From a virus: 64,000 nt of DNA. Shown one piece after another: positions 4,733-50,896 of the stretch. A program made the position numbers and the translations under genes. The DNA lies in IMG/VR virus record IMGVR_UViG_3300029258_002856. One strand, written 5' to 3'. The notes beneath the pieces were generated by a model. That model had not been told where the DNA came from. It ran no database searches and was given only the letters and a program-made list of their open reading frames with translations. Each line of letters opens with the position of its first letter. Positions within the stretch are counted from its first letter, which is position 1.

Positions 4733-6229
4733 ATGCCTTACGCCTCACCAGCACAACGCGCCGCAGTCTGGGCCAAACGCAATGCGCAAGCAGTCCTGAC
4801 TTCGGGAAACCCTGTCACCAAGCAGGAAGTGCACGATTACTACTCTAACCCGGTCATTAAGCAGCGTGTCTTGGCAGCCCTGGCAAACCGGGACCTTTTG
4901 GCAATCCAGTCAAGAAGCCCGGATGAGCAAATCGTCAGGCGCTACCGCAAGAAGAATGAGCCCATTCGTGTTGAGAACCCCGAGGACCTCGACTGGTATT
5001 CCTCTCGACGCTACACCGAGTTCCATCCTACGGTCGGGGAGAAGACGGATGAGGTCTGGGTGGATATCGACCCGGGCAAAAACAAGAATACCGAGGACAC
5101 CAAGGGTCCTACAAAATTTGTCTATGACCTCCTACGCACCATCCCCGCAGTCAAAGCCGTTGAGCTGGCGTTTTCTGGTGGGCGGGGATTTCATGTGCGT
5201 GGAAAACTAGATAAGCCTCGACCGACCAATGAAGCCCGTGGAATGCTCCAGGAGTATCTGAAACAGCTCCCTGAACGGCATACGGAACTCACGCTCAAGA
5301 CGCCGAGGCCAGATGAGATTCGGTTGGATGTCTCTACCTTGCACCCAAAAGGCTCTATCCGGGCTCCGTATTCTCTCAACGCAGAGACGGGTCTCGTAGC
5401 AGTACCGCTCGTTCCATCTCAGCTCGAGAAGTTCAACCCGCAGAAAGATGCGACACCACAAACGGTGTTGGGCAAGACCGAGTTCGCTCCCGGTATCCCT
5501 CAAGAGCGAAAAACATACCCCCTCCCCGATTTCAAGCGACCGAAAACTTGGACTCTCGCAATCCAAGAACACGATGCGCAACGGGCCGGGAAGCATTGGG
5601 ACCTTCGCCTCGTCGACCCTCGAACAACGCATGCCCACTCCTGGGCAGTGCCAAAGGCGCAGTTCCCGCAAGGCAATAGCCCGCTTCTGGCGGTACAGAC
5701 TCCGACACATACGGCGAGGTACGCTCTCACCTTCGGGGAACGCAAACCCAAGGAGATTCGGAAGGGGTATGGAAAGGGCGTCGTTCAAATTTTGCACAAG
5801 GAACCTGTAAAGGTCTTGTCGTCTTCGCCCGATAAAATTAAATTTGAGAGAGACGTGGACGGAAATCCGGAGAGGTACATGCTGTTCAAGTCAAAAGAAA
5901 ATTCATGGTTGATGCGCCGAATCAAAGAAGCGGGGCGTGCAGCTATGCTCAAGAAGTTGGGCGTCGACAAGAGTAAATTCGTGGGCAAGAAACCCTCTAA
6001 CACCGAGCTGGAAACCCCAATGGATGTCGAGGATGAGGGGCTCCCGGCAGGACAGCTTGCTCGTGCCCTCTCGGATATACCGACGGCTGCGGGGCGAGAG
6101 AACCGTGATGCTCAAGGCACTGATGATGTGGAGGGACGCCTCAACCGCACGACGACTTGGACTGAGCCTGACCACATCCCGATTGACTACGCTCAGGGTC
6201 CGTCGCCGGTTATGCCGGGGAAATTCTAA
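4733..6229 (+). CDS. LigD-like primase-polymerase (AEP) + 3'-phosphoesterase fusion, no ligase domain
   Basis: AEP motifs VWVDIDP, FSGGRGFHV, IRAPYSL. PE motifs EHDAQRAGKHWDLRL, HSWAVPK, LAVQTPTH, GYGKGVV. No KxDG adenylation domain seen. Confidence 0.85.
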   Translation: MPYASPAQRAAVWAKRNAQAVLTSGNPVTKQEVHDYYSNPVIKQRVLAALANRDLLAIQSRSPDEQIVRRYRKKNEPIRVENPEDLDWYSSRRYTEFHPTVGEKTDEVWVDIDPGKNKNTEDTKGPTKFVYDLLRTIPAVKAVELAFSGGRGFHVRGKLDKPRPTNEARGMLQEYLKQLPERHTELTLKTPRPDEIRLDVSTLHPKGSIRAPYSLNAETGLVAVPLVPSQLEKFNPQKDATPQTVLGKTEFAPGIPQERKTYPLPDFKRPKTWTLAIQEHDAQRAGKHWDLRLVDPRTTHAHSWAVPKAQFPQGNSPLLAVQTPTHTARYALTFGERKPKEIRKGYGKGVVQILHKEPVKVLSSSPDKIKFERDVDGNPERYMLFKSKENSWLMRRIKEAGRAAMLKKLGVDKSKFVGKKPSNTELETPMDVEDEGLPAGQLARALSDIPTAAGRENRDAQGTDDVEGRLNRTTTWTEPDHIPIDYAQGPSPVMPGKF

Positions 6230-8028
6230 TGGCTGAAGGTCAACCGTTCGGGCGCTGGCTCTTGAATACCCAGTTGCCTTCTGGGTTCAAGGTCAACTCC
6301 CCCGTGGGAAAGAAGCGCCTCAACCAAATGATGAATGACCTGGCGCGCAAGGACCCTACGCAATACACCACGACTATTGCAGGCCTTAAACGTCTAGGCG
6401 ATGAGCTTGCGACGCAGGAAGGCCTCTCCATCGGGCTGGATGACATCGAGCCTGAATACCGGAAACGGGATGCGCAGATGCGTCCCTTCCGTCAGAAGTT
6501 TCAGGCGGCACGTACAACCGCACAGAAGCGCCAGATACTGGAGCAGCTCCACGGAAAAATTACTGATGCCGCCATGAAGCACCGCGGGAGTCTCACGCAG
6601 CAAGTACAGAGCGGTGCTCGCGGTTCTCCCACTCAGTACATGAAGATTGTCGGTAGCCCGGTATACGCTCGGGATGCCAATGGAAAAGTTACTCCTTGGC
6701 TCATCCCACGTTCCTACAGTGAAGGGTTATCGGCTGCTGACTACTGGGCTGCGGGCAACGAAGCTATCTCGGATACCATCAAGTCGAGCACTGCGGTGTC
6801 CGAGCCCGGAGAGCTGTCCAAGATTCTCATTAACAACATGAACGATATCGTGGTGACCGAACAGGATTGCGGAACGGTCAATGGTATCCTCATGGACCCC
6901 AAAAACCCCGATGTTCAAGACCGTTATCTGGCTCGCAGTGAAGGGGGAGTGCGGAAAGACACCCTCATCAGTCCACAGGTGCAAGCCCGACTGGCCAAGA
7001 GCAAGAAGAAAATCCTGGTGCGTTCGCCGATGACTTGTGAGGCCGGTGATGGGGTCTGCCAGAAGTGCCAGGGTCTCAATGAGCGCGGGAACCTTCACAC
7101 AGTAGGCACCAATGTTGGCATCCGAGCAGCCCAGGCCATGGCGGAACCGCTCACCCAGTTCGCCCTCAATGCGAAGCATGGTGTTCGTACGGCCAAGAGC
7201 GACCGCTTGCAAGTTCACGGCATGCAGGGCTTTCGCCAGATGACAGAATCACCTCGGCAGTTCATGAACAAGGCGACCCTGGCAGGGGAAGAAGGGAAGG
7301 TCACGAAGATTGAGAAGGCCCCGCAAGGAGGACATTTCGTCTACGTCGGCAGCACCAAACATTACGTGACTCCCAACATCAACGTTGTGGCCAAGGTGGG
7401 ACAGAAGGTCGAACGCGGAGACGCGCTGAGCGGTGGGATACCCAAGCCAGATGAGGTGGTAGCCTTCAAAGGTTTGGGAGCTGGACGTCGATATATGGTC
7501 GATACGTTGAAGGAACTCTACAAGAACCAAGGACGTAATCTCGACCAACGACACTTCGAGCTGTTGGCCAAAGGCGAACTCAATCACGTACGTATCGTGG
7601 ATGACCCAGGTAGGAACTTCATTCCCGGCGATATTGTAGATTACAATCACTTCCGTTCGATTTTACGGGGTAATACGAAGACTCTTCCATTGACGCAAGC
7701 GCGCGGGGAGACCCTCGGGAAAGAGCACCTCCACTTCTCCGCCGGGACTCGTGTGACTCCTTCGGTGGAGCGGGCACTCCACAAAGAGAAAATCAAGGAT
7801 GTCATCATTGCACCCCGGGCTCCTGAGGTTGAGTTTGTGATGAAGCCCGCTACTAGAGCCCCGCTTCTTAACCCAGATTGGATGGCTCGTTTGGCGCACC
7901 GGAACCTGAAGACAACGCTTCAACAAGCTGCGCACTTTGGTGATGTTACGAATGTCCACGGAACAAATCCCATCCCGGCCTATGTTTTTGGCGTAGAATT
8001 TGGGCAGGGAGAAGAGGGACGATACTGA
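6229..8028 (+). CDS. rpoC(C): RNA polymerase beta' C-terminal subunit (RpoC2-like)
   Basis: GLSIGLDDI; bridge-helix region YSEGLSAADY...DIVVTEQDCGT; Zn site SPMTCEAGDGVCQKCQG; trigger loop AAQAMAEPLTQ...KHG; WMARLAH. Confidence 0.93.
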   Translation: MAEGQPFGRWLLNTQLPSGFKVNSPVGKKRLNQMMNDLARKDPTQYTTTIAGLKRLGDELATQEGLSIGLDDIEPEYRKRDAQMRPFRQKFQAARTTAQKRQILEQLHGKITDAAMKHRGSLTQQVQSGARGSPTQYMKIVGSPVYARDANGKVTPWLIPRSYSEGLSAADYWAAGNEAISDTIKSSTAVSEPGELSKILINNMNDIVVTEQDCGTVNGILMDPKNPDVQDRYLARSEGGVRKDTLISPQVQARLAKSKKKILVRSPMTCEAGDGVCQKCQGLNERGNLHTVGTNVGIRAAQAMAEPLTQFALNAKHGVRTAKSDRLQVHGMQGFRQMTESPRQFMNKATLAGEEGKVTKIEKAPQGGHFVYVGSTKHYVTPNINVVAKVGQKVERGDALSGGIPKPDEVVAFKGLGAGRRYMVDTLKELYKNQGRNLDQRHFELLAKGELNHVRIVDDPGRNFIPGDIVDYNHFRSILRGNTKTLPLTQARGETLGKEHLHFSAGTRVTPSVERALHKEKIKDVIIAPRAPEVEFVMKPATRAPLLNPDWMARLAHRNLKTTLQQAAHFGDVTNVHGTNPIPAYVFGVEFGQGEEGRY

Positions 8029-8576
8029 TGTCGAATTTCGAAGCAGGCTACAACGCTACACTAGCCTCTCTGGGAATAACCAAGGAGGCTCGCATCTGGC
8101 CCGCACTTCGAGGATTCGGGCAGAGGTTCGCCAAAAACTTCAAGCAAATTGCCGTTGGGAGTCCCCTCCAGGCCACGAAAGAAATCATGGCTGGGAAGGC
8201 TCTGAAGCCCGGAGGACTTATTCGAGCGGGATTCGACCCCGGAAAAGGCAAGATGGGACTTCTGATGGGTGGCCTCTTCTACGGGCTCCCGGCCTATCAA
8301 GCGTACAAGGTATATAAGAGCGATGCTCCGAACAAGGCTGAAGAAATCGGCAAGATTCTCGGGGGGACCGCTGCTGGCCTGGGGACCTGGCGTGCTTACG
8401 GGATGTTGGGGTCTATGTTGGCGACGCCAATAGGCGAGCGTCTCGGTGGGGCAGCAGGACGATTAGGACAAACGCTGGCCGGAAAACCTGTTCCGAAAGA
8501 AGCCCCGCCCCCTCCGCCTCCCCGCACAGGGATGTTGCCAGCGCAACCTCAATATGGGATGTACCCCTATTACTAG
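8028..8576 (+). CDS. Basic Gly-rich putative virion internal/membrane-active protein
   Basis: N-terminal G-x4-L-x3-G motif then KEA, hydrophobic Gly-rich segments and a P/Q/Y-rich tail. Confidence 0.6.
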   Translation: MSNFEAGYNATLASLGITKEARIWPALRGFGQRFAKNFKQIAVGSPLQATKEIMAGKALKPGGLIRAGFDPGKGKMGLLMGGLFYGLPAYQAYKVYKSDAPNKAEEIGKILGGTAAGLGTWRAYGMLGSMLATPIGERLGGAAGRLGQTLAGKPVPKEAPPPPPPRTGMLPAQPQYGMYPYY

Positions 8577-8600
8577 GGGTTGGGTTTTTTACAAAGGCGG

Positions 8601-8609
8601 CATATACTT
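8601..8609 (+). promoter_or_regulatory. Class A promoter-like motif CATATACTT
   Basis: Intergenic, upstream of SD AGGAG and ATG 8657. Confidence 0.45.
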
Positions 8610-8656
8610 CACGGTGAGTTTTAACCGATCACCGGTCAAAAAGGAGAGGTAGACAA

Positions 8657-9208
8657 ATGAATCACCAGCAACTTCTTGAGCAAGTCAAGTTGGCTTACGC
8701 TTACGGCGCAAGCGTGGCGCTTCAGGAAGCTGGCGTGGACCAGGCTACTGCGGAGCAGGCCGGGATCAAGCTGGCTGAGGAAGCCGTTACCCAAGAGAAG
8801 CGAGCCGAAGAAGACGAAGAGGGTATCCACCCGGCGCTCCTGGCTCTCCTGGGTGCCGGTGGCGGCGCGGCCCTCGGCGCAGGCGCGGGGGGACTCGTCG
8901 GCAAGCTGACGGGTAAGAACCTGCTTTCACGGGGCATGCGGCCACTAGGTAAGGCCGTTGACCGTCTCGGTGGTCCCGCGAATGTGCCCAGCGTACCGTC
9001 TGGCGGCCTCATCGACACCAAGAAACTCCAAGCGTTGCAAGAGGCGGCACAACTGTCACCGAAGGAGCAGCTGGCGAACAAGCTGCACGACCTCCTGATG
9101 GGTGCGGGTCGCATGGGCTCCATTCGTGGCAGTGCGGCGGCGGGCGCGGGAATGGGCGGTGTCGCGGGTGGTACGGCGGGCGGCTTGCTCGGCGGATTGC
9201 AGGACTAA
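8657..9208 (+). CDS. Gly/Ala-rich putative virion protein with hydrophobic segments
   Basis: SD AGGAG; KLA motifs; glycine-zipper-like segments (LLGAGGGAALGAGAGG, AAAGAGMGGVAGGTAGG). Confidence 0.6.
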   Translation: MNHQQLLEQVKLAYAYGASVALQEAGVDQATAEQAGIKLAEEAVTQEKRAEEDEEGIHPALLALLGAGGGAALGAGAGGLVGKLTGKNLLSRGMRPLGKAVDRLGGPANVPSVPSGGLIDTKKLQALQEAAQLSPKEQLANKLHDLLMGAGRMGSIRGSAAAGAGMGGVAGGTAGGLLGGLQD

Positions 9209-9225
9209 GGGCGGCTAAAGAGGAG

Positions 9226-10260
9226 TTGAAAATGCATATTTTCAAACGAGCACACTTCCGCGGAATGCTCCACGAGCTTCAGCGACGGGGCTACGTCACG
9301 CTTCCGTCTGAGAAGATTGCGGAGGAAGTGGCGGATGCAGTAGCCGATGAGTACGAGGACGAAGTGATTCCCCCGGTTACTGATGAGTCGGGCTTGACGG
9401 AAGATGAGGCTGCGGAAGCCGTCAATAAGCTTGTCGAAGTCGCCGAAGTCATCGCGGAGAAGTCCGGTGCTGCTGTCGACCCGGCCTACCAGCAGAAGGT
9501 CGCGTCGGTTACCACCGATGAGATGTACAAAGAGGCCGCATCCCAGGCCGCCATCTCTCTCATCGAGAAGGCCGCATTGGAAGGACCCATTATCCCCGGG
9601 CAGAAGCCCCCGGAGGATGGGCTCGACGCCACCAACGAGGCGCAAGTCGACGCGACGGACAACCCCTCGGCGGAGGTCATTGTCCCGAAGGGTGAGTCCT
9701 CGATGGACGCCACCCCCGGCGCGGTGGGACATGAGGCAATCCGTCCAGACCAGCCCGGGGCTAATGACGGTGATACTCCCGTGGAGGTAGCCGATGTGAA
9801 AGTCTCGTCCGTCGATGCCCTCCTGGCTAAACTCGGCATGGGAGCTAGCACCATGGCCGCCCCCTCTCCGGCGGGCGATGGTTCTCCCGGAGCTGCCGGG
9901 GGGAAGGGCGATGGGCGCAAGGACCTCGAGACCAACCTCGGGATGGGCAAGGACATGATTGTCCCGCAGGGGGATACCAAGCAGACTCCTCCGGCAGTCC
10001 CGGTGCCCCTCAAGAGTGCTCCGGCAGCTGCGGGCGTGGACATCACGCAGAAGGACAAGCCGCAGACTGACGTGCAAGCCGACATCAGTAAGGCGGCGTC
10101 TCTTCTTCTGAAGACCGAACGTGGGCGTGCCATCCTGAAGAAGATTGGCGAAGAGCTCAAGGAAGATGAGGAAGAAGAGAAGAAGAAGGACGACGAAGAG
10201 AAGGCCGCTGCTGAAATCCTTCGTCGTGCTCTGGGCCACGCCTCCCAAGCCGTCAGTTAA
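9226..10260 (+). CDS. Acidic putative head scaffold/internal protein
   Basis: SD GAGGAG; acidic and Pro-rich; repeated KxA motifs (EKIA, QKVAS, KEAAS, EKAA, SKAAS). Confidence 0.6.
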   Translation: MKMHIFKRAHFRGMLHELQRRGYVTLPSEKIAEEVADAVADEYEDEVIPPVTDESGLTEDEAAEAVNKLVEVAEVIAEKSGAAVDPAYQQKVASVTTDEMYKEAASQAAISLIEKAALEGPIIPGQKPPEDGLDATNEAQVDATDNPSAEVIVPKGESSMDATPGAVGHEAIRPDQPGANDGDTPVEVADVKVSSVDALLAKLGMGASTMAAPSPAGDGSPGAAGGKGDGRKDLETNLGMGKDMIVPQGDTKQTPPAVPVPLKSAPAAAGVDITQKDKPQTDVQADISKAASLLLKTERGRAILKKIGEELKEDEEEEKKKDDEEKAAAEILRRALGHASQAVS

Positions 10261-10284
10261 GACTTTCCTCCCTAAAATCTCCAC

Positions 10285-10293
10285 AGTATAATT
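10285..10293 (+). promoter_or_regulatory. Class A promoter-like motif AGTATAATT
   Basis: Perfect TATAAT hexamer in intergenic DNA before SD GGAGG and ATG 10331. Confidence 0.55.
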
Positions 10294-10330
10294 CATTTCG
10301 ACTACCCTACTGTAAAGGGAGGATTTACGT

Positions 10331-12982
10331 ATGCCTGGAATGTCAATGTCACCGAACGTAAACGCCTACGGCGAAGTGCCAGCAGCAGAGCAGGCCGAAG
10401 AGCTGTTCAAGCAGGAGTTCGCGAAGGCAGCGTGGGCGGTAATCCTGTCGAAGTTCCCGGACCTCTCACCTTCAGTGGTGACGTTCAAAATTCTGGAGAC
10501 TGACGCAGAGACCGGCAAGGGTGTTGGCGCGTTCATCCTCCTCTATGAGCAAAAACCTATCTACATCCCTGTGGTGATGGTAGACAGCAAGCTCAAACCC
10601 CTGGAGATGTTCTACTACAAAGAGATGAACATCTTCCTGCCGCTCTCTAAGACCTGGCTGGAGGAAGTCTCCAAAATGAGTTTGGATGAGATGGGACGCG
10701 GGGAGGACATTCCAGACAGTGTTCCCCGGGACGTCAACATCCGGGACCTCGTGATGCCCCCGTACACGCAGAGTGGGCGCGTGGGGTTGGCGCATGACCT
10801 GGAGCACGGAGCACAAGCGCTGTTCAAAGAGGCTGAGAACCAGGAGGTGGAGATACACCCCCGGTTCCTTCACGCCATTCGCCGTGCGCCGAAGGTGGCC
10901 CTCGACGGCATCAAGGTGGCGTTCCAGCACAATCCCGCACTACTCCAGAAGATTGCCAAGGTTTACGGAGTAAAAGAACTGACTGCTGCCATCACTGAGG
11001 GCTACCAGAAGGCGCACATGTCTTCGCAGCTCCAAGAGAAGGTGGCGTCGGTACGAGAAGGTGCGCTCGAAGTTTTCACCAAAGAGGCCTCTTCGGACCG
11101 ACTCCGTGAAGTGTTTGGACCCAAGGCCGGTGAAGCCTTCATGGAAATTCTCACCAAGGGTTACGCCGTACAGGACACCCGGCACGTGAAGCACGCGGCC
11201 ATTTCGGTGAAACTCGAGACCGAGGCGAAGCTCCAGGCTCCTGGCCCTGCGCCGGGGTGGTTCAAGCTGTTCTTCGTGGATGGTCCAGCCGGGAACTACC
11301 TGGTCATCCCCCACCCGAAGCGGTCGGAGAAGTATGTCGGGAACGGCGACTACTACTACACTGGCAGTGACTACCGCAACTTCGACAGCTTCAACAAGGA
11401 GCCCGCCCTCGTCGTGGACGTCAATGGCAAAGAGGCATGGCTGGCCAAGGGCGTCTTGGGGATTCCTATTTACGAGGAGGGAGACGTCAACCAGACAAAG
11501 CTCTGGAAGATGCTCAATGCTGCGGGGAAGGGTGACACTCCGCGTCCTTACTCCTATGGCTTTTTCATCTACGCCGGTCCGCAGGGGGTTCAAGCTACGG
11601 AACCCATCGACGTTCGTCAGGTGACGGATACCGGGGACGGGCGTGTTCGTATTCAATCGGATTTTGGGCCGAAGTTCATCTGGGACACGGACCCCACGCG
11701 GCACACCATCGACCACGCCATGAACGGCGAGTTTGTTTTTTTGCCCAAGAACACCAAGTGGGTGGAAATCGGAAAGGTGCCCGAGGAAGCGAATAAACGG
11801 GACTTCGAGAAGATGCGGGATGTCCGGCGTCTAGCTAGCCAGCATCGTCGTGAGACTCTGCTGAGTGACCCGAAGCTCATCTTTCGGTGGATGAACCAGA
11901 TTCTTCAGGAGAGCGGAGCCAAGAAGGTCAACGTCAAACGCGCAGGGGAAGACCTGTGGTGGATTGAAGGTGACTCGAAGCCCTACACTCTGGACGTAGC
12001 CATCGACAAAGTTGCTCGGGAGTACGATGTCACCACGGATGCGGCGCTCGACGTACTGAAGGAAGCTCAGCACCTTGGGGTGGCCGAGGCGTACATCGTT
12101 GACCATGCATCGGGACGAAAAGTTCAAGAGTCGTTCCAGAAGCACGCGCAACCACCAGGACAGGTGGGTGCGGAGATTCCGATGCCTCCGGGTCCGCAAG
12201 CAGGACCGCCTCCGGGCGGCATGCCTGCCCCTCCTGGAGACCCGAGCATGGCGGGAATGGCCCCTCCTCCGATGCCTACCTCTCCGATGACACCCACGGA
12301 CCTGGCTATCGCCGAGGTAGTGGACAACCTGCGCGAGCAAAACAATATGCAAATGCAGCAAGCGCAGGACCACATGATGATGCAGCAACAGCAGATGCAG
12401 ATGGAGGCGGAAAACAACGACCGCCTCATCGGTGTCCTCGAGGGTATTCAACAACGGTCACAAGAAATCTCGGCGGCTACCGGAGGCATGATTCCTGCGG
12501 GGGCAGAACAAGCTCCAGCACAGGCAGCGCAGATGCTCGCCCCTATCCCGCCCGAAGAACCCCCTCCCCCTCCGCAACCAGTGATGGATGAGGCTGGGGC
12601 AGAAGTCACCCCCGACATGGTGGCGCAGCAAATCAACCCCTCGATGATTGAAGATGCCGAGGCTCTTCAGAACGAGGGGGTCTTCGACACTGCGGCGATT
12701 GCAATGTTGGCCGCAGCACCGGTACTCCAAGATATCGTCTCTTCTTACATCCCCAACCTGGAGAAGTGTCTGGACAACGTGGGACGTATTCTCCTCACCC
12801 TTTGGATGCGGGAGGAAGAGACCAAAGAAGCCATCGGGGATGAAGCATTCATCGTCCTGGAGGACAAGCTCCGTACTGTCTTCAAGAACCTGGGCGATAC
12901 CATTCTCGAAATCAACCGCAACGCGGTGAGCACCGAGGACTCTGCACAGGAAATGTCGCAGATGCTTGCTGACCAGCAGTAA
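10331..12982 (+). CDS. Large putative head morphogenesis protein with P/Q/M-rich C-terminal region
   Basis: 883-aa ORF with SD in the head cluster; KxA motifs (FKEA, EKVAS, QKHA). Function not recognised. Confidence 0.6.
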   Translation: MPGMSMSPNVNAYGEVPAAEQAEELFKQEFAKAAWAVILSKFPDLSPSVVTFKILETDAETGKGVGAFILLYEQKPIYIPVVMVDSKLKPLEMFYYKEMNIFLPLSKTWLEEVSKMSLDEMGRGEDIPDSVPRDVNIRDLVMPPYTQSGRVGLAHDLEHGAQALFKEAENQEVEIHPRFLHAIRRAPKVALDGIKVAFQHNPALLQKIAKVYGVKELTAAITEGYQKAHMSSQLQEKVASVREGALEVFTKEASSDRLREVFGPKAGEAFMEILTKGYAVQDTRHVKHAAISVKLETEAKLQAPGPAPGWFKLFFVDGPAGNYLVIPHPKRSEKYVGNGDYYYTGSDYRNFDSFNKEPALVVDVNGKEAWLAKGVLGIPIYEEGDVNQTKLWKMLNAAGKGDTPRPYSYGFFIYAGPQGVQATEPIDVRQVTDTGDGRVRIQSDFGPKFIWDTDPTRHTIDHAMNGEFVFLPKNTKWVEIGKVPEEANKRDFEKMRDVRRLASQHRRETLLSDPKLIFRWMNQILQESGAKKVNVKRAGEDLWWIEGDSKPYTLDVAIDKVAREYDVTTDAALDVLKEAQHLGVAEAYIVDHASGRKVQESFQKHAQPPGQVGAEIPMPPGPQAGPPPGGMPAPPGDPSMAGMAPPPMPTSPMTPTDLAIAEVVDNLREQNNMQMQQAQDHMMMQQQQMQMEAENNDRLIGVLEGIQQRSQEISAATGGMIPAGAEQAPAQAAQMLAPIPPEEPPPPPQPVMDEAGAEVTPDMVAQQINPSMIEDAEALQNEGVFDTAAIAMLAAAPVLQDIVSSYIPNLEKCLDNVGRILLTLWMREEETKEAIGDEAFIVLEDKLRTVFKNLGDTILEINRNAVSTEDSAQEMSQMLADQQ

Positions 12983-13680
12983 TGAAGCGTTGCGTCCCAG
13001 ACCGCAAGTGGAAGATGGTCATGGCGGCTGTTGCGAAGAAGTCTCGGCCAAAAGATTCGCAGCTTGCGAAGGTCTATGACTTCCTCGCGGAGGAGAAAGA
13101 CGACGACCGTGTTGAGTACGTGGTGTCCCTCCTCGATTCACCTATGGCCCGGGACCGCATCGTTGCTTTCTTCTTGAGCGGGGCGACCCTCCCGGAAATC
13201 AGCAAGAGCCTGTGGATTCCGATTGAGGTGCTGGAGCTTTTCCAATGGCTCTATGTCAACAAGGACGAATTTCGGCATAAGCTCGAGATCTATCAGTATG
13301 CTCAGGAGTACATGCGGAACGTCTGCGAAGAGGAGAACGCGGAGTGGCTGAAACTTGGTCTTGAGATTGGACCCCTCGCTCTTATCTACAAACATCTCCA
13401 CGGTCACGAGAATCTCCCCATCGATGCGCGGATGCTTACCCGGGAGATGATTAACCAGGCGTTTCATCTGAGCATGCTGGCTCGGGGCAATCAAATTACT
13501 TCTTCCGTTGCGAAAGAGGCCTACAAGTGGATGGGTAGCGCCTCCCGCATGGCCCTTTCGTACGATAAGCTTGGTTTGGATGACACGGCGGAGGATGAAG
13601 CCCTGGTTGCTATCGAGCGTCGGAAGATGACCCGAACTCCGGAGGAGGCAGAGGTTCCTCCGGATACGATTCTGCACTGA
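12982..13680 (+). CDS. Hypothetical protein
   Basis: 232-aa ORF whose start overlaps the previous stop. Confidence 0.7.
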   Translation: MKRCVPDRKWKMVMAAVAKKSRPKDSQLAKVYDFLAEEKDDDRVEYVVSLLDSPMARDRIVAFFLSGATLPEISKSLWIPIEVLELFQWLYVNKDEFRHKLEIYQYAQEYMRNVCEEENAEWLKLGLEIGPLALIYKHLHGHENLPIDARMLTREMINQAFHLSMLARGNQITSSVAKEAYKWMGSASRMALSYDKLGLDDTAEDEALVAIERRKMTRTPEEAEVPPDTILH

Positions 13681-13693
13681 AAGGACGAGACGA

Positions 13694-14566
13694 ATGTGGC
13701 AGCGCAAACAATACGATAACGCGGCATTGGAGATTGCGAAGAACTACGTTGCGGCGGATGGCCAGTGCAGTATCGAAGACTTAGCTACGAAGGTGGCCAA
13801 CGACAACAACCTGAACCCCGACGGCATCCGTACCCTGGTGCGGCTGGCTAATGTCTGCGCATTCCAGGAACTCTTCGACAAGAAGGCCGGAGACGAGGAC
13901 CGGATGGTGGAGTTCAAATTGGGAGACGCGGAACTCGTCATCAGCAAGCTGCATGAGGATGCCCGGGAGAAAGTGGCCTCTGCTCCTGCTCCGACTGCCC
14001 CCAACTACAATCGACACTTGGACTACTTTGGGGAGTTCGAGAAGGTCGCCAATGGTGATGAGGAGGAAGAGGGAGAAGAGGTTGAGGAGCTTGCCGAGGA
14101 AGAGTTGAAGGAAGAGCAGAAGGCCGATGGGCCGGTGGTGGACAAGCAGAAGACCAAGAAGCTCTTCGAAGCCGCGACGGAGAAGCTCGAGGGAGAGAAG
14201 AAAGAGGCGCAGTATGCGTGGCTGCGGAACATGGAGAACGCAGCCCAATCCGTCCGCGTCCTTTCCGGAACCTCTTCTTTTGGTGACATGTCAACCTTCG
14301 AGAAAGATGCCGTGTGTTCCGTGGGAGAGGACATCATCCCAGAGCTGCGTGCCCTCAACTACATGGTCGGCGGTAGTCTCGACGCTCCGCTCTTCGGGGG
14401 GGAGAAAATTGCGTCGGTGCACAACACTCATGTAGTGCTCCCTCTCACGTCGGAAAAGAAGAATGTGTGCACCGTCTTGAAGAATGCGAGTCAAGCTCGC
14501 TACAATTCTAAGGAATGCGACCGCGGTTTGGTTTTACTGCGTAAAGGGCTGTCGGAATGCCAATAA
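13694..14566 (+). CDS. Putative head protein (acidic linker, KxA motifs)
   Basis: SD AAGGA; EKVAS, EKVA, EKIAS motifs. Confidence 0.65.
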   Translation: MWQRKQYDNAALEIAKNYVAADGQCSIEDLATKVANDNNLNPDGIRTLVRLANVCAFQELFDKKAGDEDRMVEFKLGDAELVISKLHEDAREKVASAPAPTAPNYNRHLDYFGEFEKVANGDEEEEGEEVEELAEEELKEEQKADGPVVDKQKTKKLFEAATEKLEGEKKEAQYAWLRNMENAAQSVRVLSGTSSFGDMSTFEKDAVCSVGEDIIPELRALNYMVGGSLDAPLFGGEKIASVHNTHVVLPLTSEKKNVCTVLKNASQARYNSKECDRGLVLLRKGLSECQ

Positions 14567-15195
14567 TCGGTAACCTCACGGCCAAGGGAATGCTCGGGAC
14601 CGCGCTGCGTCACCCGGCACTTCTCCTTGCGCTCGGTGGAGGAGCCGTAGTAGCGTCTAACCTCAGACAACAGGGCCGTGAATTGGAGAGCGAAATCATG
14701 AAAAACCGTCTAGGCGCACCTGGGGCGAAATTCGTTTACGCGGAGTTCGACAACTTCGCGGGACGTAAACGACACCTGGCGGAGAAGTTGGCGTTCTCCA
14801 AGGAGGCGGATGAGACGGCGGTGGGGGACGTCATCGTCAAGGGGTTAGCTGGAGGTGCCGCCGGAGAATCTGTTCGGGGTCTCCGGGATGTGGTAGGCGG
14901 CGCGGCCCGCAAAGTTAAGGACCGTCTCGTTCTTGAACCACGCCGAGAAAAAATTCTGGAGCAAATCCTTACGGACGACCCGACAGTTTCTGCTTACGAG
15001 GAAGAGAGTCCTGGATCGGCGGCCCAGGCGTACAGCTCCATGAAGCGTGTTGCTCCAGAACTCAGCACTGACCCCAACGTTGTTCTCTCCTATCTCCGGG
15101 AGGCAGCACAGACGGGCGGCAGTACCAACTACATGACCATCAAACAGCTAGCGGAAACCGAAGCCGCAATCAATAAGGCAAAGGGGAGAGGTTAA
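14557..15195 (+). CDS. Putative virion protein with N-terminal hydrophobic segment
   Basis: ALLLALGGGAVVA segment; EKLA and SKEA motifs. Confidence 0.65.
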   Translation: MPIIGNLTAKGMLGTALRHPALLLALGGGAVVASNLRQQGRELESEIMKNRLGAPGAKFVYAEFDNFAGRKRHLAEKLAFSKEADETAVGDVIVKGLAGGAAGESVRGLRDVVGGAARKVKDRLVLEPRREKILEQILTDDPTVSAYEEESPGSAAQAYSSMKRVAPELSTDPNVVLSYLREAAQTGGSTNYMTIKQLAETEAAINKAKGRG

Positions 15196-15196
15196 G

Positions 15197-15415
15197 ATGT
15201 CCATGGAAAAACTGGCAGCACTGGTTCCTGAGCAAGTCAAGGAAGCCGTTACCTCTCACCAGAATCACCGGCTCCTCATGGCTCGGACAGGTCTTGATGA
15301 GGTCACTCTTCAAAAGCTGGGAGCGTACATTGGAGGTCGCGTAGCTGCACGGCGTGCACGCTGGCGTCCGGTCTTTGACGGGTTCCGAGCTTTGAAGAAC
15401 CTGCGGAGGTCATAA
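15197..15415 (+). CDS. Small hypothetical protein
   Basis: Tightly packed operon ORF; EKLAA and QKLG motifs. Confidence 0.6.
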   Translation: MSMEKLAALVPEQVKEAVTSHQNHRLLMARTGLDEVTLQKLGAYIGGRVAARRARWRPVFDGFRALKNLRRS

Positions 15416-15819
15416 TGCGTGCTCTTGCTGCGGAAATTTCGCACACGCTGAGACAGCGTGCGAAGCTGGAGAAAATTGCGGCGGACACGGAGTCGGCAGG
15501 CGTCAGCTACGAAGCCCAGAAGGGTAGTGTTGATGTTTGCAACCGCCTTTACGGCGTACTCCAGAAAGAAGCGTCTTTCAAAGGTGATGGGAAAGACGAC
15601 CTTCGTTTCTGCGAACTCATCACCAAGATGGCGAGTGCTCTTGGGAAAGAGAAGCCTTCCGCGGAGACTCAGCTCAAGTTGGCGGGTGCGGTGATGGTTG
15701 ATTTGGCGCTTCAGCGCGCGCTCAATGACGACATCCCCTACGCAGAGAAGACTAAACTGGCCGCGCAGCAGCTTTACGGGCGGGAATACCTCGCGGACTT
15801 GCTCACCGGAGTTCTGTAG
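15415..15819 (+). CDS. Putative head protein
   Basis: Coupled ORF; EKIAA, QKEAS, LKLAG, TKLAA motifs. Confidence 0.65.
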   Translation: MRALAAEISHTLRQRAKLEKIAADTESAGVSYEAQKGSVDVCNRLYGVLQKEASFKGDGKDDLRFCELITKMASALGKEKPSAETQLKLAGAVMVDLALQRALNDDIPYAEKTKLAAQQLYGREYLADLLTGVL

Positions 15820-17900: not shown

Positions 17901-17924
17901 TCCTTGTAGAACAAACGTTTGCAC

Positions 17925-17933
17925 CCTATTATT
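17925..17933 (+). promoter_or_regulatory. Class A promoter-like motif CCTATTATT with TTGTAG 17 bp upstream
   Basis: TTGTAG at 17904-17909, 17-bp spacer, then TATTAT. The same -35 hexamer precedes 31068. Confidence 0.6.
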
Positions 17934-17964
17934 GGTTGCGAACAACAAAGCGAGGTAGACTGTC

Positions 17965-18657
17965 ATGGCAACTTTGGACCAACTTCTGGGTGATATCGAA
18001 AACGCGGAGAAAACCGCAAGCGCGCAAGCCGACCCCAAAACCGGGGACCAGGCTGCGGCTCAAACGGCCCTCAAGGATGTTCTCGACGAGGCCCAACAGA
18101 GCAAGACCGCTTCGGCGGGAGGCTCCGAGGACCCGGTGGATGCGCTCATGAAAATGGCCGAAGAGCTTGTCGAGTCTGAGAAGGAAGCCGAAGTCGTGCT
18201 GGCCGCGCAATGTGGTCGCGCCTTCGGGGACGCCTTCCTGGAGCAGATTGCTTCGGCGGACGCGGCGGCCAAGGTCGCGGCGGCACAGTACTCCACTGGC
18301 GTCTCCGACCCGCAAATCAGCGATGCGCAGGCTGCGGATATGCTCAAGCAGGCTGCGGCCACGGGCTATGAGCGTGTCCAGCGCCAGCTGGCCCCGGCCA
18401 ACGACCTCGAGGAGGTCGTCAAGGTGGCTGCCGCCCAAGGTCAGGAAGAAGAGCTGCTCAAGCTGGCCGCGCAGGAAGGCTACGACGCTGCGGTTGCGGC
18501 AATGCAGAAGGAAGCAGCTCCGACCTTTGACACCGGTCAGCAGCAGGCGTTGCAAGAAGTTCATGATGTCTGTGCGGCCGAGTTCATGAAGGGTGCGCAG
18601 GAAGTTGCCATGTTCGCCAACCGTGCGGAAGCGGCGCGGCAACAGCAACAGAGGTAA
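17965..18657 (+). CDS. Putative scaffolding protein
   Basis: Ala/Gln/Glu-rich helical sequence with about seven KxA[AS] motifs, between protease and capsid genes. Confidence 0.65.
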   Translation: MATLDQLLGDIENAEKTASAQADPKTGDQAAAQTALKDVLDEAQQSKTASAGGSEDPVDALMKMAEELVESEKEAEVVLAAQCGRAFGDAFLEQIASADAAAKVAAAQYSTGVSDPQISDAQAADMLKQAAATGYERVQRQLAPANDLEEVVKVAAAQGQEEELLKLAAQEGYDAAVAAMQKEAAPTFDTGQQQALQEVHDVCAAEFMKGAQEVAMFANRAEAARQQQQR

Positions 18658-18660
18658 CCC

Positions 18661-18786
18661 ATGTACGACGCGGCAACGCGCAAGCAGTACGAGAAGCTCC
18701 TCAAGACCGCGATGGAGAGTCTCGCTCCGCGTTACGGAGTAAAACTCCCCGCGCCAAAGAAGAGCAAGGATAAGCGGGATGCCTAG
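18661..18786 (+). CDS. Small basic protein (41 aa, below ORF-track cutoff)
   Basis: MYDAATRKQYEKLLKTAMESLAPRYGVKLPAPKKSKDKRDA; SD GAGG; fills the gap between neighbours. Confidence 0.55.
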   Translation: MYDAATRKQYEKLLKTAMESLAPRYGVKLPAPKKSKDKRDA

Positions 18787-19003
18787 ACTACCGGATGTGA
18801 ACACCCTTATTCGGCGTGTCAAGAAGCTGGCTACGACTTCACCGCCAGAAGCCGAGAAGACTGCGGCTCCCGCCGAGAATTTCACCACGGATGTTGCCAA
18901 GGACCTGGCCAAGTTCGCGCAACGGTTGCGGACCCAGCCGGACTCGGGCGATGTAACCTATAACGACGTGCTGTCGTTTGGACGAGGGTTGCTAGACCGA
19001 TGA
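18779..19003 (+). CDS. Small head-cluster protein
   Basis: Overlaps previous stop; KKLA and EKTAA motifs. Confidence 0.6.
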   Translation: MPRLPDVNTLIRRVKKLATTSPPEAEKTAAPAENFTTDVAKDLAKFAQRLRTQPDSGDVTYNDVLSFGRGLLDR

Positions 19004-19170
19004 TGACACGAGAAGAAGGCTTGAAGCTTGCCGAGAGGATGCGAAACCTCGCCGCAGAATATCGGAAAGACGATGCCAAAAAGAAACAGGAGAAGACCGT
19101 GAAGTGCGCACAGGTTCTCACTGTTGCTCGTGGCGTGTCAGCGTTCAAGAAAATCCTGGCTGGAGGATAG
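19000..19170 (+). CDS. Small basic protein (56 aa, below cutoff)
   Basis: ATGA overlap with the previous stop; MMTREEGLKLAERMRNLAAEY...ILAGG. Confidence 0.55.
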   Translation: MMTREEGLKLAERMRNLAAEYRKDDAKKKQEKTVKCAQVLTVARGVSAFKKILAGG

Positions 19171-19175
19171 TCACC

Positions 19176-46019: not shown

Positions 46020-46379
46020 ATGGACCGCAGCACCGCACTATACAACGAGCTGATGGACGCAGTAAACGCAGAAGACATCGGAATCCTCGAAGGTCTCAAA
46101 ACCAAAGAGGAGCTCGAAGAAATGTGCGTCTATTACCAGAACCACAACCAGGGCCAAACGGCTAGAAAATACGGCGTAAGCAAACCCTTCGTACAGGCTC
46201 GTTTTCAGAAGATGGCGATTGCGTTCCTCGTGGACGAAAAAGATAACCTGATGGAGGAGTTCCTCTACTCGCAATTCTCAGAGGAGAACACGTTTTTCCT
46301 GTACATCCTACATCTCGGGTTGGAGAAATACCGCAAAGAGAAGAAAAACACCAAGCTTCGTACAGTGAAGGAGCGATGA
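46020..46379 (+). CDS. Hypothetical protein (possible HTH)
   Basis: ATG 46020 with SD AAGGAG; QGQTARKYGVSKPFV. Confidence 0.6.
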   Translation: MDRSTALYNELMDAVNAEDIGILEGLKTKEELEEMCVYYQNHNQGQTARKYGVSKPFVQARFQKMAIAFLVDEKDNLMEEFLYSQFSEENTFFLYILHLGLEKYRKEKKNTKLRTVKER

Positions 46380-46594
46380 TGCCGCTGAATGAAGCCGAGA
46401 AGGCCAACTTCGAGACTCTCCAGGGTGCATTCGAAGATGGCAACGTCGCGCTCCTGGAAACGACGAGAATCGACGACGGGAGCCGCGCCGTGCTACTCTG
46501 TGCGATAGGGTACGTAGACGAGGAGTACCTCTTTACCCCGTTCGCGGAAATGGTAGATGGTAACCCGTACGAGATATACACGCCCCCGGCCTAA
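46376..46594 (+). CDS. Small hypothetical protein
   Basis: 72 aa, coupled to the previous ORF. Confidence 0.65.
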   Translation: MMPLNEAEKANFETLQGAFEDGNVALLETTRIDDGSRAVLLCAIGYVDEEYLFTPFAEMVDGNPYEIYTPPA

Positions 46595-47325: not shown

Positions 47326-47535
47326 ATGTCACACTACGAATTGGGCTACAGGCATACGCTGGTCAAACTGGGAGTTTCCCCGGAACTAGCCAGGGCTGCC
47401 GTCAATAAACATCTCCTTCGTGCGTTGTGGGAATCCATCAAGAGGAACCCGCTTCGTCCTACCCGCCATCTCGGTAGTTCGCTAGACGCTTTGATAAAAA
47501 GATATCCCCGGACTCTCGCTAAGGGTGTAAAGTAA
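47326..47535 (+). CDS. Small basic protein carrying the putative virion-targeting motif
   Basis: MSHYELGYRHTLVKLGVS closely resembles the N-terminus of 8028. Confidence 0.6.
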   Translation: MSHYELGYRHTLVKLGVSPELARAAVNKHLLRALWESIKRNPLRPTRHLGSSLDALIKRYPRTLAKGVK

Positions 47536-47541
47536 CCGGCT

Positions 47542-47618
47542 CGGGGTGTAGCGCAGTCTGGTAGCGCGCCAGCTTTGGGAGCTGGATGCCGAAGGTTCGA
47601 ATCCTTTCGCCCCGACCA
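47542..47618 (+). tRNA. tRNA-Pro(UGG)
   Basis: Acceptor CGGGGTG/CGCCCCG; anticodon arm CCAGC-TTTGGGA-GCTGG; encoded CCA. Confidence 0.92.
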
Positions 47619-47622: not shown

Positions 47623-47694
47623 GCCTCTATAGTTCAACTGGTAGAGCAGGAGGTTTCAATCTCTTAGTTCCAGGTTCGAGTCCTGGTGGAGGCG
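47623..47694 (+). tRNA. Atypical tRNA-Trp-like gene with TCA triplet in a 6-nt anticodon loop
   Basis: Acceptor GCCTCTA/TGGAGGC; D-arm GTTC-AACTGGTA-GAGC; T-arm CCAGG-TTCGAGT-CCTGG; discriminator G; anticodon stem GGAGG/TCTCT with loop TTTCAA. Confidence 0.7.
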
Positions 47695-47715
47695 CTCAAC
47701 CAAAAGGAGAACACA

Positions 47716-49833: not shown

Positions 49834-50300
49834 GATACCTGCTGGCGCTAGCTTTCATACTGTCCATTCCGTGCGTCTCGATGGCCGATGAAGATGAAGA
49901 CCCCTACCAGGTACGGCGGCACCTCCCTACCGTGAAGACGACCGTCATCGAAGGGAAGAGCTACAAGTGCTTGGACAAGGACCAGTGGAAGACCGTGATG
50001 CTCATCGCGCTCGACTACCAGGGACTCTTCGACTGGCGGCTCAAGATACGTGGGGTTCTCGAAGCCCACGACCAAATCCTCGAGACCTACGAGTTGAAGA
50101 TTTCCAACTATGAGTCGATGTTGAAGGTCCAAGAAGCGAACGTCGGCTACTACAAAACTCGCCTGAAAGACGTGGAAGACCGACTCGGAATGGGCAACAT
50201 CGAGGACCGCCTGGAAAAGTACGCGCTCTGGGCAGTCGTACTCATCGAAACAGTGACCATCGCGGTAATGGGAATCAAATCCTACGCGGACGCGAACTAG
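49830..50300 (+). CDS. Exported coiled-coil protein with C-terminal TM
   Basis: Signal peptide MRYLLALAFILSIPCVSMA; C-terminal TM YALWAVVLIETVTIAVMGI. Confidence 0.6.
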   Translation: MRYLLALAFILSIPCVSMADEDEDPYQVRRHLPTVKTTVIEGKSYKCLDKDQWKTVMLIALDYQGLFDWRLKIRGVLEAHDQILETYELKISNYESMLKVQEANVGYYKTRLKDVEDRLGMGNIEDRLEKYALWAVVLIETVTIAVMGIKSYADAN

Positions 50301-50896
50301 GGATAACCAGGACCGTAGTACTGCTGGGGATAGGGACTCTCCGGTTGCCCCTTGTTGCCAAGCAGTGCGTACCCGCCGAGACCGGCCGCTCCGAGTCCCA
50401 GTCCCCACTTCAGCTTTCGCCCGAGAGTCCAGGGTGCTCCTTCTTCGGTCTTGGGAGTTTCTGCCAGCATGCCGCCGCCTTGTCGGACTTTCCCTGCGCT
50501 GCCGCCAGGACCTGGGCGGAAGCCGGAGAGACGCGGGTCTCCGACGTTGAGTGTCGCGCCGGAACGGATATGCCGTGTTGCTCGTCCAGGAGTACCCTTG
50601 GCCACGGGCATCTCACCTACCAGGCGGCCTTTCCCGGACAACACACTCTTGGCCTGTGCGAACATTCCGGGTTTACGAACAGCTCCCGCAGCGGGTAGAG
50701 CAACGTTACGCCCTTTGCCAATGAGGCTCCGGAAGAAGTTAGCGGCTTGGCGGCGGAACGCTTCCTTCGTCATCCCGCATTGGGCCGCCACCTTCTCCAA
50801 CTCCGCATCCGGCATCAGCAGCAGCCCTTGAAGCATCGCTATTTTATCTGCTGCGTACTTCTCCAGGCCCAACTGTCGCATAGTTTCGAGATACAT
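50297..50896 (-). CDS. Basic Gly-rich putative virion protein located in the accessory region
   Basis: SD GGAGG; MYLETMRQLGLEKYAA...EKVAA; C-terminal TM and P/Q/Y tail, the same architecture as 8028 and 28027. Confidence 0.7.
   Translation of the reverse strand: MYLETMRQLGLEKYAADKIAMLQGLLLMPDAELEKVAAQCGMTKEAFRRQAANFFRSLIGKGRNVALPAAGAVRKPGMFAQAKSVLSGKGRLVGEMPVAKGTPGRATRHIRSGATLNVGDPRLSGFRPGPGGSAGKVRQGGGMLAETPKTEEGAPWTLGRKLKWGLGLGAAGLGGYALLGNKGQPESPYPQQYYGPGYP

Follow-up and report, generated by a model that had tools for sequence, protein, structure and literature searches.

A short helical tag on small proteins and an enzyme tail of an uncultured phage: a candidate capsid-targeting peptide

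Proteins carrying the motif

The window analyzed here is a stretch of 64,000 nucleotides that forms part of a 179-kb uncultured phage (IMG/VR record IMGVR_UViG_3300029258_002856). A sequence-only reading had listed seven strings, with coordinates, as one shared capsid-targeting signal of the form G-x4-[LM]-x3-G-hydrophobic, and all seven were found as written. We scanned the 80 proteins of the window with the pattern G-x4-[LM]-x3-G-[VILY]. The carriers, named by coordinate, are as follows.

5924-6226, plus strand: C-terminal tail of a LigD-like enzyme (residues 398-498), with K-E-A, the tag G-R-A-A-M-L-K-K-L-G-V (5933-5965), a linker, the helix L-P-A-G-Q-L-A and the conserved end G-P-S-P-V-M-P-G
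8028-8090, plus strand: family A tag with K-E-A, F-E-A-G-Y-N-A-T-L-A-S-L-G-I-T-K-E-A, residues 1-21 of the 182-aa protein 8028-8576
8684-8776, plus strand: family B tag V-K-L-A-Y-A-Y-G-A-S-V-A-L-Q-E-A-G-V (residues 10-27) through K38-L-A40 of protein 8657-9208
9241-9321, plus strand: family C N-terminal domain F-K-R-A-H-F-R-G-M-L-H-E-L-Q-R-R-G-Y...P-S-E-K-I-A of protein 9226-10260, which fits the pattern and has no profile link to the other tags
28036-28161, plus strand: N-terminal region (residues 4-45) of protein 28027-28662, G-E-A-Y-A-L-K-T-C-G-Y-S-P-A-Q-V-K-Q-A-F ... G-L-V-K-E-A, followed by a body without an acidic residue
46761-46793, plus strand: pattern match G-A-V-V-K-L-K-K-A-G-V in protein 46737, directly preceding a hydrophobic segment; absent from the earlier list, detected by no HMM and judged to be chance
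47326-47376, plus strand: type-1 tag M-S-H-Y-E-L-G-Y-R-H-T-L-V-K-L-G-V at the start of the 69-aa ORF 47326-47535
50852-50896, minus strand: truncated type-1 tag and K-Y-A, M-Y-L-E-T-M-R-Q-L-G-L-E-K-Y-A, at the start of protein 50297-50896 (7.8-9.0 bits)

The LigD-like enzyme is encoded within the RNA polymerase operon, and the Pfam domains LigD_Prim-Pol and LigD_N span its residues 69-353. In its AF2 model, the last beta strand lies at residues 391-397 and pLDDT is below 50 for residues 400-498, with helices at 402-408 and 438-447; by this model, the tag sits beyond the folded domains, in a disordered tail. The tails of relatives start with [T/A]-K-E-[A/G]-x-M-T-P-[F/Y]-x-x-G-R, and K-x-A was present at the boundary of fold and tail in 7 of 7 orthologues, where it comes before the tag and not after it. 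A word-index search, which has limited sensitivity, found no stand-alone homologues of this tail.

In an alignment of 23 family A proteins, G7, G16 and K19 were invariant, as was the K-x-A, and a linker of variable length followed the K-E-A. The AF2 model of family A has a helix at residues 3-14 and pLDDT below 50 at residues 21-45. In family B, the tag was the most conserved part of the protein, with pairwise identity of 0.53-0.59 versus at most 0.32 elsewhere.

Basic bodies (pI 10-12) were found in three of the five window carriers examined, that of 28027 having a pI of 12.0, and carriers differed between genomes in number, length and position. Both 47326 and 50297 map outside the structural module. 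A search for homologues of 47326 found none; a tRNA-Pro lies after this ORF, at 47542. The tag of 50297 lacks the first G because the start M sits four codons past a stop; the G004 protein at this position (85485-85862, minus strand) reads F-Q-H-G-F-A-D-T-W-T-L-F-K-L-G-A. The RNA polymerase subunits carry no tag.

Database searches gave little. Tagged proteins had no match in PHROGs except one weak tape-measure match, the tagged-protein families yielded nothing useful in PHROGs and Pfam, an ESM Atlas search with the families returned only viral clusters without names, and cultured phages gave no blastn match to the head region.

Frequency, position and kinship of the tags

Over the 80 window proteins, the pattern matched 9 times against 3.5 expected (P about 0.01), and its second half, L-x3-G-h, occurred 50 times against 41 expected. 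The first 30 residues held 6 matches versus 0.44 expected (0 of 2000 shuffles), bearing out the earlier claim that the motif is usually N-terminal. Against the concern that it might be no commoner than in shuffled proteins, this N-terminal excess stood, whereas the whole-protein count was just about twice chance. The tag starts within residues 1-10 in 8028, 8657, 28027, 47326 and 50297; the exception to N-terminal placement is the LigD-like copy, which begins at residue 401.

Five related contigs had 5, 4, 3, 3 and 1 matches in the first 45 residues, against 0.3-0.6 expected, and N-terminal enrichment was reproduced in four of the five; in tag-bearing relatives, the 883-aa head-module protein is 42-48% identical. 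Orthologues of 8028, 8657 and 9226 retain the motif, and so does the LigD-like tail. The exact regular expression was not enriched in G006, a distant 170-kb relative, which retains the tag in both family A and the protein at the 28027 position, G+5 being Y. Pattern matches in 46737, 15819 (residue 480) and 19104 (residue 94) look like chance.

A Schellman C-cap has a hydrophobic residue four positions ahead of a Gly and another directly after it, at the end of a helix. L-x3-G-h matches this arrangement, and the AF2 helix of family A stops at residue 14, two before G16, at moderate pLDDT (61-73). This half of the motif may be read as an ordinary, generic helix C-cap.

The proposal of one motif over seven proteins was upheld for part of them. 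The type-1 tag, [FY]-x-x-G-[YRW]-x3-[LY]-x2-[LM]-G-h, is carried by 8028, 47326 and the LigD-like tail, and weakly by 50297, and 8657 carries a B-type tag, whereas 9226 is unlinked and the window copy of 28027 is sub-threshold. The set is heterogeneous and not one uniform seven-member motif.

These assignments came from profile and pairwise comparisons. The A-only HMM scored 47326 at 18.2 bits, the LigD-like tail (G001 copy) at 16.7 and 50297 at 7.8, with a shuffle maximum of 5.9 bits. Proteins at the 28027 position scored 11.3 bits in G003 (with this same HMM) and 12.3 bits in G004, and those of G001 and G006 retain the pattern. The B-only HMM detected two more proteins, G002_63001 and G004_63184 (31.7 and 12.3 bits), and the C-only HMM matched no other family. 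Cross-family matches reached 11-32 bits versus shuffle maxima of 5.9-8.9; with the mixed HMM, the window copies of 28027 and the LigD-like tail scored at noise. When the N-termini of the window proteins were compared pairwise without bias, 8028/47326 was the one pair that stood out (score 55 versus a null maximum of 40). When the tags were removed, hhalign probability was below 3% for A/B, A/C, A/LigD tail, B/C, B/28027 and others, and the only body similarity was a weak link among A, 28027 and 50297.

The profile search placed the family C domain at the N-terminus of 92 of 94 matched cluster representatives, in proteins mostly of 250-785 aa, with some shorter and probably partial entries. Its position upstream of the 883-aa protein is retained in distant phages. 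By these searches, the 9226 match belongs to a widespread, deeply conserved, family-specific N-terminal domain. Homology between this module and the LigD-like tail was not supported (hhalign probability 13%, E 0.002), and no LigD-like protein was returned by a profile search of 1.84 billion proteins.

Candidate cleavage sites and the head module

Three genes of the head module bear on the proposed fate of the tag.

15819-17900, plus strand: prohead protease; the protease domain is N-terminal, and a long, Gly-rich extension follows on its C-terminal side (phrog_18299, head maturation protease, E 2.3e-10, residues 72-197)
17965-18657, plus strand: scaffold-like protein with invariant E-K-x-A sites and repeats [VL]-K-x-A-A-x-x-G-Y (9 orthologues aligned)
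20057-20977, plus strand: major capsid protein candidate (phrog_2522, E 7.9e-4), in which G-R-T-K-E-A is conserved some 30 residues from the N-terminus

A protease gene in the head module is as expected for a T4 gp21-like system, and 15819 is presumed to be the enzyme for the putative K-x-A cleavage. The protease itself has T-K-H-A-S near its N-terminus, conserved in relatives, and the G-x-x-K-E-A of the capsid protein is retained in relatives and in the capsid proteins of the phages Arash and D69. K-x-A occurred 78 times in the head block (8028-21600) against 34.9 expected, with no enrichment elsewhere, and 10 times against 2.8 expected in the scaffold-like protein. The sequence-only reading had placed a K-x-A within about 15 residues after the motif; this was true in five of seven cases (P 0.0002 versus the whole window and 0.009 versus the head block) but not in the remaining two. 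Copies of the B and C types also have a K-x-A within the tag helix (L-K-x-A-Y-A-x-G). Because of these internal sites, and of the K-x-A ahead of the LigD-like tag, a simple rule of tag and then cut fails in some cases.

The GY-centred helices of the scaffold had been thought to be related to the motif, a suggestion that found no backing: the window scaffold scored 1.4-2.8 bits, which is not significant, and over all scaffolds the tag HMMs gave 1.4-6.6 bits, never above shuffles. Scaffold mimicry is kept as a lead only. Among real matches, the scaffold ranked first with the A-only HMM in the Arash locus and with the mixed HMM in the D69 locus, also not above shuffles. The portal label for 10331-12982 was dropped because its only cultured match is Arash gp218 ("structural protein") and the Arash portal is annotated elsewhere.

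Salmonella phage Arash, the best cultured match, is a distant one (24% identity across part of a single protein), and neither Arash nor D69 has families A, B and C. Judged by eye, a comparable N-terminal G-x4-L...G-h-x-K-x-A is present in Arash gp221 and in its D69 counterpart (179 aa, 19477-20016 of locus L032). The Arash virion contains a multisubunit RNA polymerase, whose subunits are the most abundant proteins of the virion preparation (PMC10585845). The scaffold-like gp223 and gp221 of Arash had 100% peptide coverage in the particle preparation, so propeptide removal is not evident in Arash.

Interpretation and comparison with known systems

The tag is present and conserved, lies on bodies without detectable kinship, and adjoins a flexible linker and a conserved K-x-A. 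That its carriers dock, are packaged and are then cleaved is inferred, as is the partner to which they would bind. We favor the reading, to which we give slightly less than an even chance, that the tag would be a propeptide like the T4 capsid-targeting sequence (CTS) on variable, mostly basic internal proteins. Its place at the extreme N-terminus, the unrelated bodies, the K-x-A and linker that follow, the restriction of K-x-A enrichment to the head block, the variable and mostly basic carriers, and the location of the LigD-like tag in a disordered tail are consistent with capsid targeting, although these features hold for part of the set. Counting against it are the mixed nature of the set, the untagged RNA polymerase subunits, the position of 47326 and 50297 away from the structural module, the K-x-A sites inside or ahead of some tags, the family-specific domain of 9226 and the full peptide coverage seen in Arash.

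A helix of about 12-18 residues that ends in G-hydrophobic heads a varying group of small, mostly basic and Gly-rich proteins (8028, 8657, 28027, 50297 and 47326), as well as the disordered C-terminal tail of the LigD-like enzyme. On the favored reading, the helix would dock its carrier on a component of the prohead core, so that the carrier is enclosed while the shell forms, and the prohead protease 15819 would then cut at the adjoining K-x-A and free the mature protein inside the head. The scheme in full, which we regard as doubtful, is that of a portable prohead address label, possibly derived from scaffold repeats, that would load small, mostly basic proteins and, via the LigD-like tail, a DNA end-repair polymerase/phosphoesterase, perhaps together with a virion RNA polymerase, K-x-A cleavage releasing the cargo.

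A rather unlikely alternative is that fast-evolving, paralogous small Gly-rich proteins use the helix as an assembly or pro-region element that neither decides their entry into the capsid nor is necessarily cleaved; it might serve for mutual binding or keep the proteins inert until assembly. Proteins of family A, 28027 and 50297 share, besides the weak body similarity, Gly-rich hydrophobic helices and Tyr-rich C-termini. Family B matches Pfam glycine-zipper models weakly (8657 reached 14.6 bits with PF13488/PF13441, below the cut-off of 25; no other tagged protein scored). Within some tags and within the scaffold repeats, moreover, K-x-A has the look of a helical-repeat element, not of a site for cutting. 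However, the same tag is found on the tail of the soluble LigD-like enzyme and on the 69-aa 47326, with bodies unrelated to the Gly-rich class, and the invariant K19 of family A, followed by a variable linker, resembles a processing site.

It is unlikely that there is no common function at all, a generic helix C-cap having been pooled with family-specific N-termini and with chance matches chosen post hoc. The modest excess over whole proteins and of the half-motif, the isolation of the C-only HMM, the noise-level window copies of 28027 and the LigD-like tail, the single significant window pair and the lack of regular-expression enrichment in G006 all point this way, but cross-family HMM scores above the shuffle maxima, the N-terminal enrichment seen again in relatives and the tags retained in G006 argue against it. 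Very improbable is an amphipathic membrane-binding helix that brings the Gly-rich proteins to the inner membrane of the host, where they might act in lysis or form a conduit for DNA or protein: the bodies do have Gly-rich hydrophobic helices and 50297 adjoins the small genes 49438 and 49830 (one membrane-spanning-like and one signal-peptide-like segment), but the tag is also on soluble, acidic or enzymatic bodies and its hydrophobic moment of 0.07-0.28 is at or below the proteome mean of 0.26 (only truncated 50297 is higher, 0.46), on which ground the idea was rejected.

If the CTS-like reading is true, the T4 principle of capsid targeting would gain a second example, independent in sequence, from a lineage with a virion RNA polymerase and without a cultured member. 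The tag would tell which small genes of unknown role encode injected proteins, suggest that a DNA end-repair enzyme travels along with the genome, and offer a short transplantable handle for loading foreign cargo into capsids. If the tag does not target the head, it would still be a useful marker of fast-evolving small virion-module proteins.

Several known systems resemble this arrangement in part. Herpesvirus assemblin maturation and release sites have the form (V/L)-x-A and are cut before S, and phage prohead proteases have the assemblin fold. The candidate K-x-A sites often have S, A or G as the next residue (E-K-T-A-S of the scaffold is one case), although P3 is Lys here. Encapsulin cargo-loading peptides, which are usually C-terminal and uncleaved, act in bacterial nanocompartments. 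The LigD-like tail shares their layout, in which a short conserved terminal peptide, tied by a flexible linker to unrelated cargo enzymes, would dock inside an HK97-fold shell, but the consensus is different and nanocompartments are not phage heads.

In the giant phages SPN3US, phiKZ and 201phi2-1, N- and C-terminal propeptides have been proposed to target proteins, the protease included, into the prohead (PMC7411985, PMC5694885, PMC10052503). The likeness extends to virions with a multisubunit RNA polymerase and many internal proteins. However, the propeptides of these phages are long, at 64-130 residues, with cutting after a T4-like motif; a short helix common to them has not been described, and the present lineage is only distantly related.

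In T4, the CTS is found on IPI, IPII, IPIII and Alt (Mullaney and Black 1996, as reviewed in PMC9026906 and PMC7411985), and among T4-like phages the basic internal proteins that bear CTS-like sequences are variable (PMC9026906). The candidate site is K-x-A here and L/I-x-E in T4; furthermore, one copy here heads a C-terminal tail and some copies hold K-x-A inside the helix. As in T4, a short peptide at the N-terminus (about 17-21 residues here and 10-19 in T4) lies on divergent proteins that are often basic and vary among related phages, a candidate prohead-protease site directly follows the peptide, and the phage encodes a prohead protease.

Placement of the motif in the window and in related phages

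In the sequence-only reading, seven strings of the form G-x4-[LM]-x3-G-hydrophobic were taken for one candidate capsid-targeting signal. All seven were found in the translated window, in the proteins starting at 8028, 8657, 9226, 28027, 47326 and 50297 and in the LigD-like protein at 4733. The short helix that carries the motif is called the tag here, and families A, B and C are the proteins at 8028, 8657 and 9226 with their homologues. The genes concerned are the following.

Main genes of the window
380-4732, multisubunit RNA polymerase, beta/beta-prime N part
4733-6229, LigD-like primase-polymerase plus phosphoesterase
6229-8028, RNA polymerase, beta-prime C part
8028, 8657 and 9226 (starts), three small proteins, families A, B and C
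10331-12982, 883-aa protein
15819-17900, prohead protease (phrog_18299, E 2.3e-10)
17965-18657, scaffold-like protein
20057-20977, capsid protein candidate
25253-28027, sheath-like protein, 924 aa
28027-28662, small protein T, 211 aa, between the sheath-like and tube-like genes
28675-29427, tube-like protein
29461-31044, gp5-like hub (PF22178, 27.1 bits against a curated cut-off of 30.9)

As a bare regular expression the motif is weak. The window proteins gave 9 matches where 3.5 were expected; the second half of the motif, L-x3-G-hydrophobic, which we take to have the look of a Schellman-type helix C-cap, occurred 50 times in the window against 41 expected. It is the N-terminal placement that is striking: 6 matches lay within residues 1-30, where 0.44 were expected, and 0 of 2000 shuffles reached 6. 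The match at 46737 and two internal matches were judged chance-like.

Because the pattern had been defined post hoc from the same data, other DNA was used for a further test: ten related loci, in which the 883-aa protein was 42-48% identical to that of the window, together with six whole contigs. Five relatives yielded 5, 4, 3, 3 and 1 matches to the exact regular expression within residues 1-45 of their proteins, where 0.3-0.6 were expected, and the motif was retained in orthologues of 8028, 8657 and 9226 and in the LigD-like tail. Alignment of family A (n=23) showed that G7, G16 and K19 were invariant and A21 nearly so, that the residue at G+5 was L, M or Y, and that a linker of variable length followed K-E-A.

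HMMs trained on one family each were run on the full protein sets of six genomes, with 20-fold shuffles for comparison. Outside its own family, the A-only HMM (shuffle maximum 5.9 bits) matched 47326 (18.2 bits), a LigD-like tail (16.7), the protein at the 28027 position in contig G003 (11.3) and 50297 (7.8), and the B-only HMM (shuffle maximum 8.9) matched a 114-aa protein elsewhere in contig G002 (31.7 bits) and the protein at the 28027 position in contig G004 (12.3). The C-only HMM (shuffle maximum 9.5) had no match outside family C in the six genomes. From these single-family matches we distinguish two kinds of tag, type-1 and B-type, with the 28027-position proteins as a bridge between them. 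A single motif on all seven proteins was upheld in part: type-1 and B-type tags cross families, but family C is unlinked. With a mixed HMM, the 28027 and LigD copies of the window itself scored at noise. When the N-termini of the window were compared all against all, only 8028/47326 stood out, plus one unrelated paralogue pair. This pair, the adjacent genes 55999-56643 (214 aa) and 56640-57296 (218 aa), had the top pairwise N-terminal score in the window (78; null maximum 40); their N-termini, M-R-L-F-Y-E-G-M-V-E-L-G-L-F-L-E-E-K-F in the former and M-R-R-F-F-E-G-M-V-K-L-G-R-F-F-D-E-K-F in the latter, strongly resemble each other but differ from the tag.

Judged from its profile, the family C N-terminus is a family-specific domain. 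When 1.84 billion proteins were searched with a profile of its first 95 residues, 94 cluster representatives matched, at the very N-terminus in 92, and these 92 proteins were mostly 250-785 aa, some shorter ones being probably partial. The gene always lay just upstream of that for the 883-aa protein, distant phages included. Directly after the N-terminal helix, family C residues 28-40 (window 9307-9345) read S-E-K-I-A-E-E-V-A-D-A-V-A, and the segment is conserved in the matched representatives as P-S-K-x-A-x-[DE]-x-A-D-x-V-A-D.

In the AF2 model of the LigD-like enzyme, the last beta strand ended at residue 397. Confidence was low throughout residues 400-498, in which two short helices were modelled, one at 402-408 (the tag) and one at 438-447. 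In relatives the tail starts with [T/A]-K-E-[A/G]-x-M-T-P-[F/Y]-x-x-G-R, as if the beginning of a family A gene, with its Met, had been joined to the end of the enzyme. A word-index search of limited sensitivity gave no stand-alone homologue of the tail.

Cultured relatives and neighbouring genes

The closest relatives in culture, Salmonella phage Arash and Vibrio phage D69 (186 kb), are very distant: their counterparts of the 883-aa protein are 24-33% identical to it along part of its length. The order of genes from the 883-aa protein to the capsid protein is kept in both. RNA polymerase subunits were the most abundant proteins in an Arash particle preparation (PMC10585845), so the RNA polymerase of this broad phage group is probably packaged. 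The sole cultured-phage match of the 883-aa protein was Arash gp218, a "structural protein" found by virion mass spectrometry; its assignment as portal was dropped, since the annotated portal of Arash sits upstream of its RNA polymerase beta gene. In two related loci (L005 6837-10064 and L007 15575-18757) the prohead protease gene has about 1060-1075 codons, against 683-693 in other relatives, and therefore has a large insertion or extra domain. Among the few recognisable genes of the small-gene region was that for a 72-aa protein (46376-46594), which clearly belongs to Pfam DUF6117 (E 1.7e-17). Directly behind tRNA-Pro (47542-47618), ARAGORN placed a tRNA-like gene (47623-47695) whose "anticodon" has two bases and is undetermined.

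K-x-A sites and the proteins carrying the tag

K-x-A, a candidate prohead-protease site, occurred 78 times in the proteins of the head block (8028-21600) against 34.9 expected (2.2-fold), most strongly in 10331 (14 against 5.3), 17965 (10 against 2.8) and 19104 (6 against 1.0), whereas the polymerase operon, the tail module and the remaining window showed no enrichment. The proposed K-x-A within 15 residues after the tag was present in 5 of the 7 proteins (P 0.009 even against the head-block background). E-K-x-A stood at two invariant places across nine scaffolds, G-x-x-K-E-A about 30 residues into the capsid protein of the window, Arash and D69, and T-K-H-A-S near the protease N-terminus. A protease cleavage code would give such a pattern, which falls short of proof: K-x-A also occurred within B- and C-type tags and scaffold repeats, and the K-x-A of the LigD-like protein stands ahead of its tag.

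The scaffold repeats, [VL]-K-x-A-A-x-x-G-Y, resemble by eye the first half of the B-type tag. A relationship of these GY helices to the tag was not sustained, as the repeats scored 1.4-2.8 bits and the Arash and D69 scaffolds 6.6 and 4.4 bits, never above shuffles. The D69 scaffold-like protein (L032 21434-22243) has at its end three tandem repeats, roughly 30 residues long and each flanked by E-K-[SV]-A and V-K-E-A (e.g. E-K-S-A-S-V-A-E-L-I-D-A-G-N-S-F-E-D-A-V-E-M-V-K-E-A), an arrangement suggestive of successive cleavable units.

No Pfam or PHROG family covered any tagged protein, and no homologue of 47326 was found. The AF2 model of family A had a helix at 3-14 (moderate confidence), followed by residues 21-45 with pLDDT below 50. 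Body pI, computed on the sequence after the first K-x-A, was 10.2 for 8028, 12.0 for 28027 (0 acidic residues in 167 aa), 10.4 for 50297, 7.0 for 8657 and 4.3 for 9226. The 28027 protein, whose body after L-V-K-E-A is 34% Gly+Ala, is a candidate DNA-binding internal protein. The small tagged genes varied between genomes in number, length and position; the sheath-tube slot held proteins of 105-239 aa in the genomes compared, with extra copies elsewhere in G002 (IMGVR_UViG_3300025697_000023). Arash and D69 had none of the small tagged genes at these positions, and the Arash-like sheath-tube slot had no gene. In G002, a 177-aa Gly/Gln/Met-rich protein (61172-61705) that starts ...E-K-V-A-A-F-I-E-H-T-G-V-L-K-E-A and ends G-G-Y-P-G-G-Y belongs to the same small-protein class, without the first Gly of the tag.

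Possible roles of the tag

The best-supported reading, to which we incline tentatively, is that the tag may be a propeptide of the T4 capsid-targeting kind. It would bind some component of the prohead, with the prohead protease then cutting at K-x-A; the tagged tail would bring the LigD-like enzyme in, and a cut at the K-E-A boundary would free it. Against this, the polymerase subunits are untagged, neither 47326 nor 50297 is part of the structural module, and searches with 47326 gave no homologue. The 100% peptide coverage of scaffold-like gp223 and gp221 in the Arash preparation (PMC10585845) also counts against it.

An assembly or pro-region helix, non-targeting, of a paralogous Gly-rich protein class is an unlikely yet serious alternative: the bodies of A, 28027 and 50297 were weakly linked (hhalign, E 2e-4 to 3e-3), and all three are Gly-rich with Tyr-rich C-termini, while outside the tag A, B, C and the LigD-like tail were mutually unrelated by hhalign. 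That the motif is a mixed collection in which helix caps are pooled with family-specific N-termini seems rather improbable; the noise-level 28027 and LigD scores, the lone 8028/47326 pair, the chance-like matches and the scaffold scores that never exceed shuffles agree with a non-uniform motif, and the type-1 and B-type tags cross families. An amphipathic membrane-binding helix can hardly be entertained, because the hydrophobic moment of the tag is low.

The propeptide reading is a case from sequence inference, and the tag is directly testable. T4 internal proteins and Alt carry N-terminal propeptides of 10-19 residues that attach to the core of the prohead and that gp21 cleaves off (PMC9026906, PMC7411985). 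By sequence the tag is probably no member of the T4 CTS, but it would work alike if the proposal holds.
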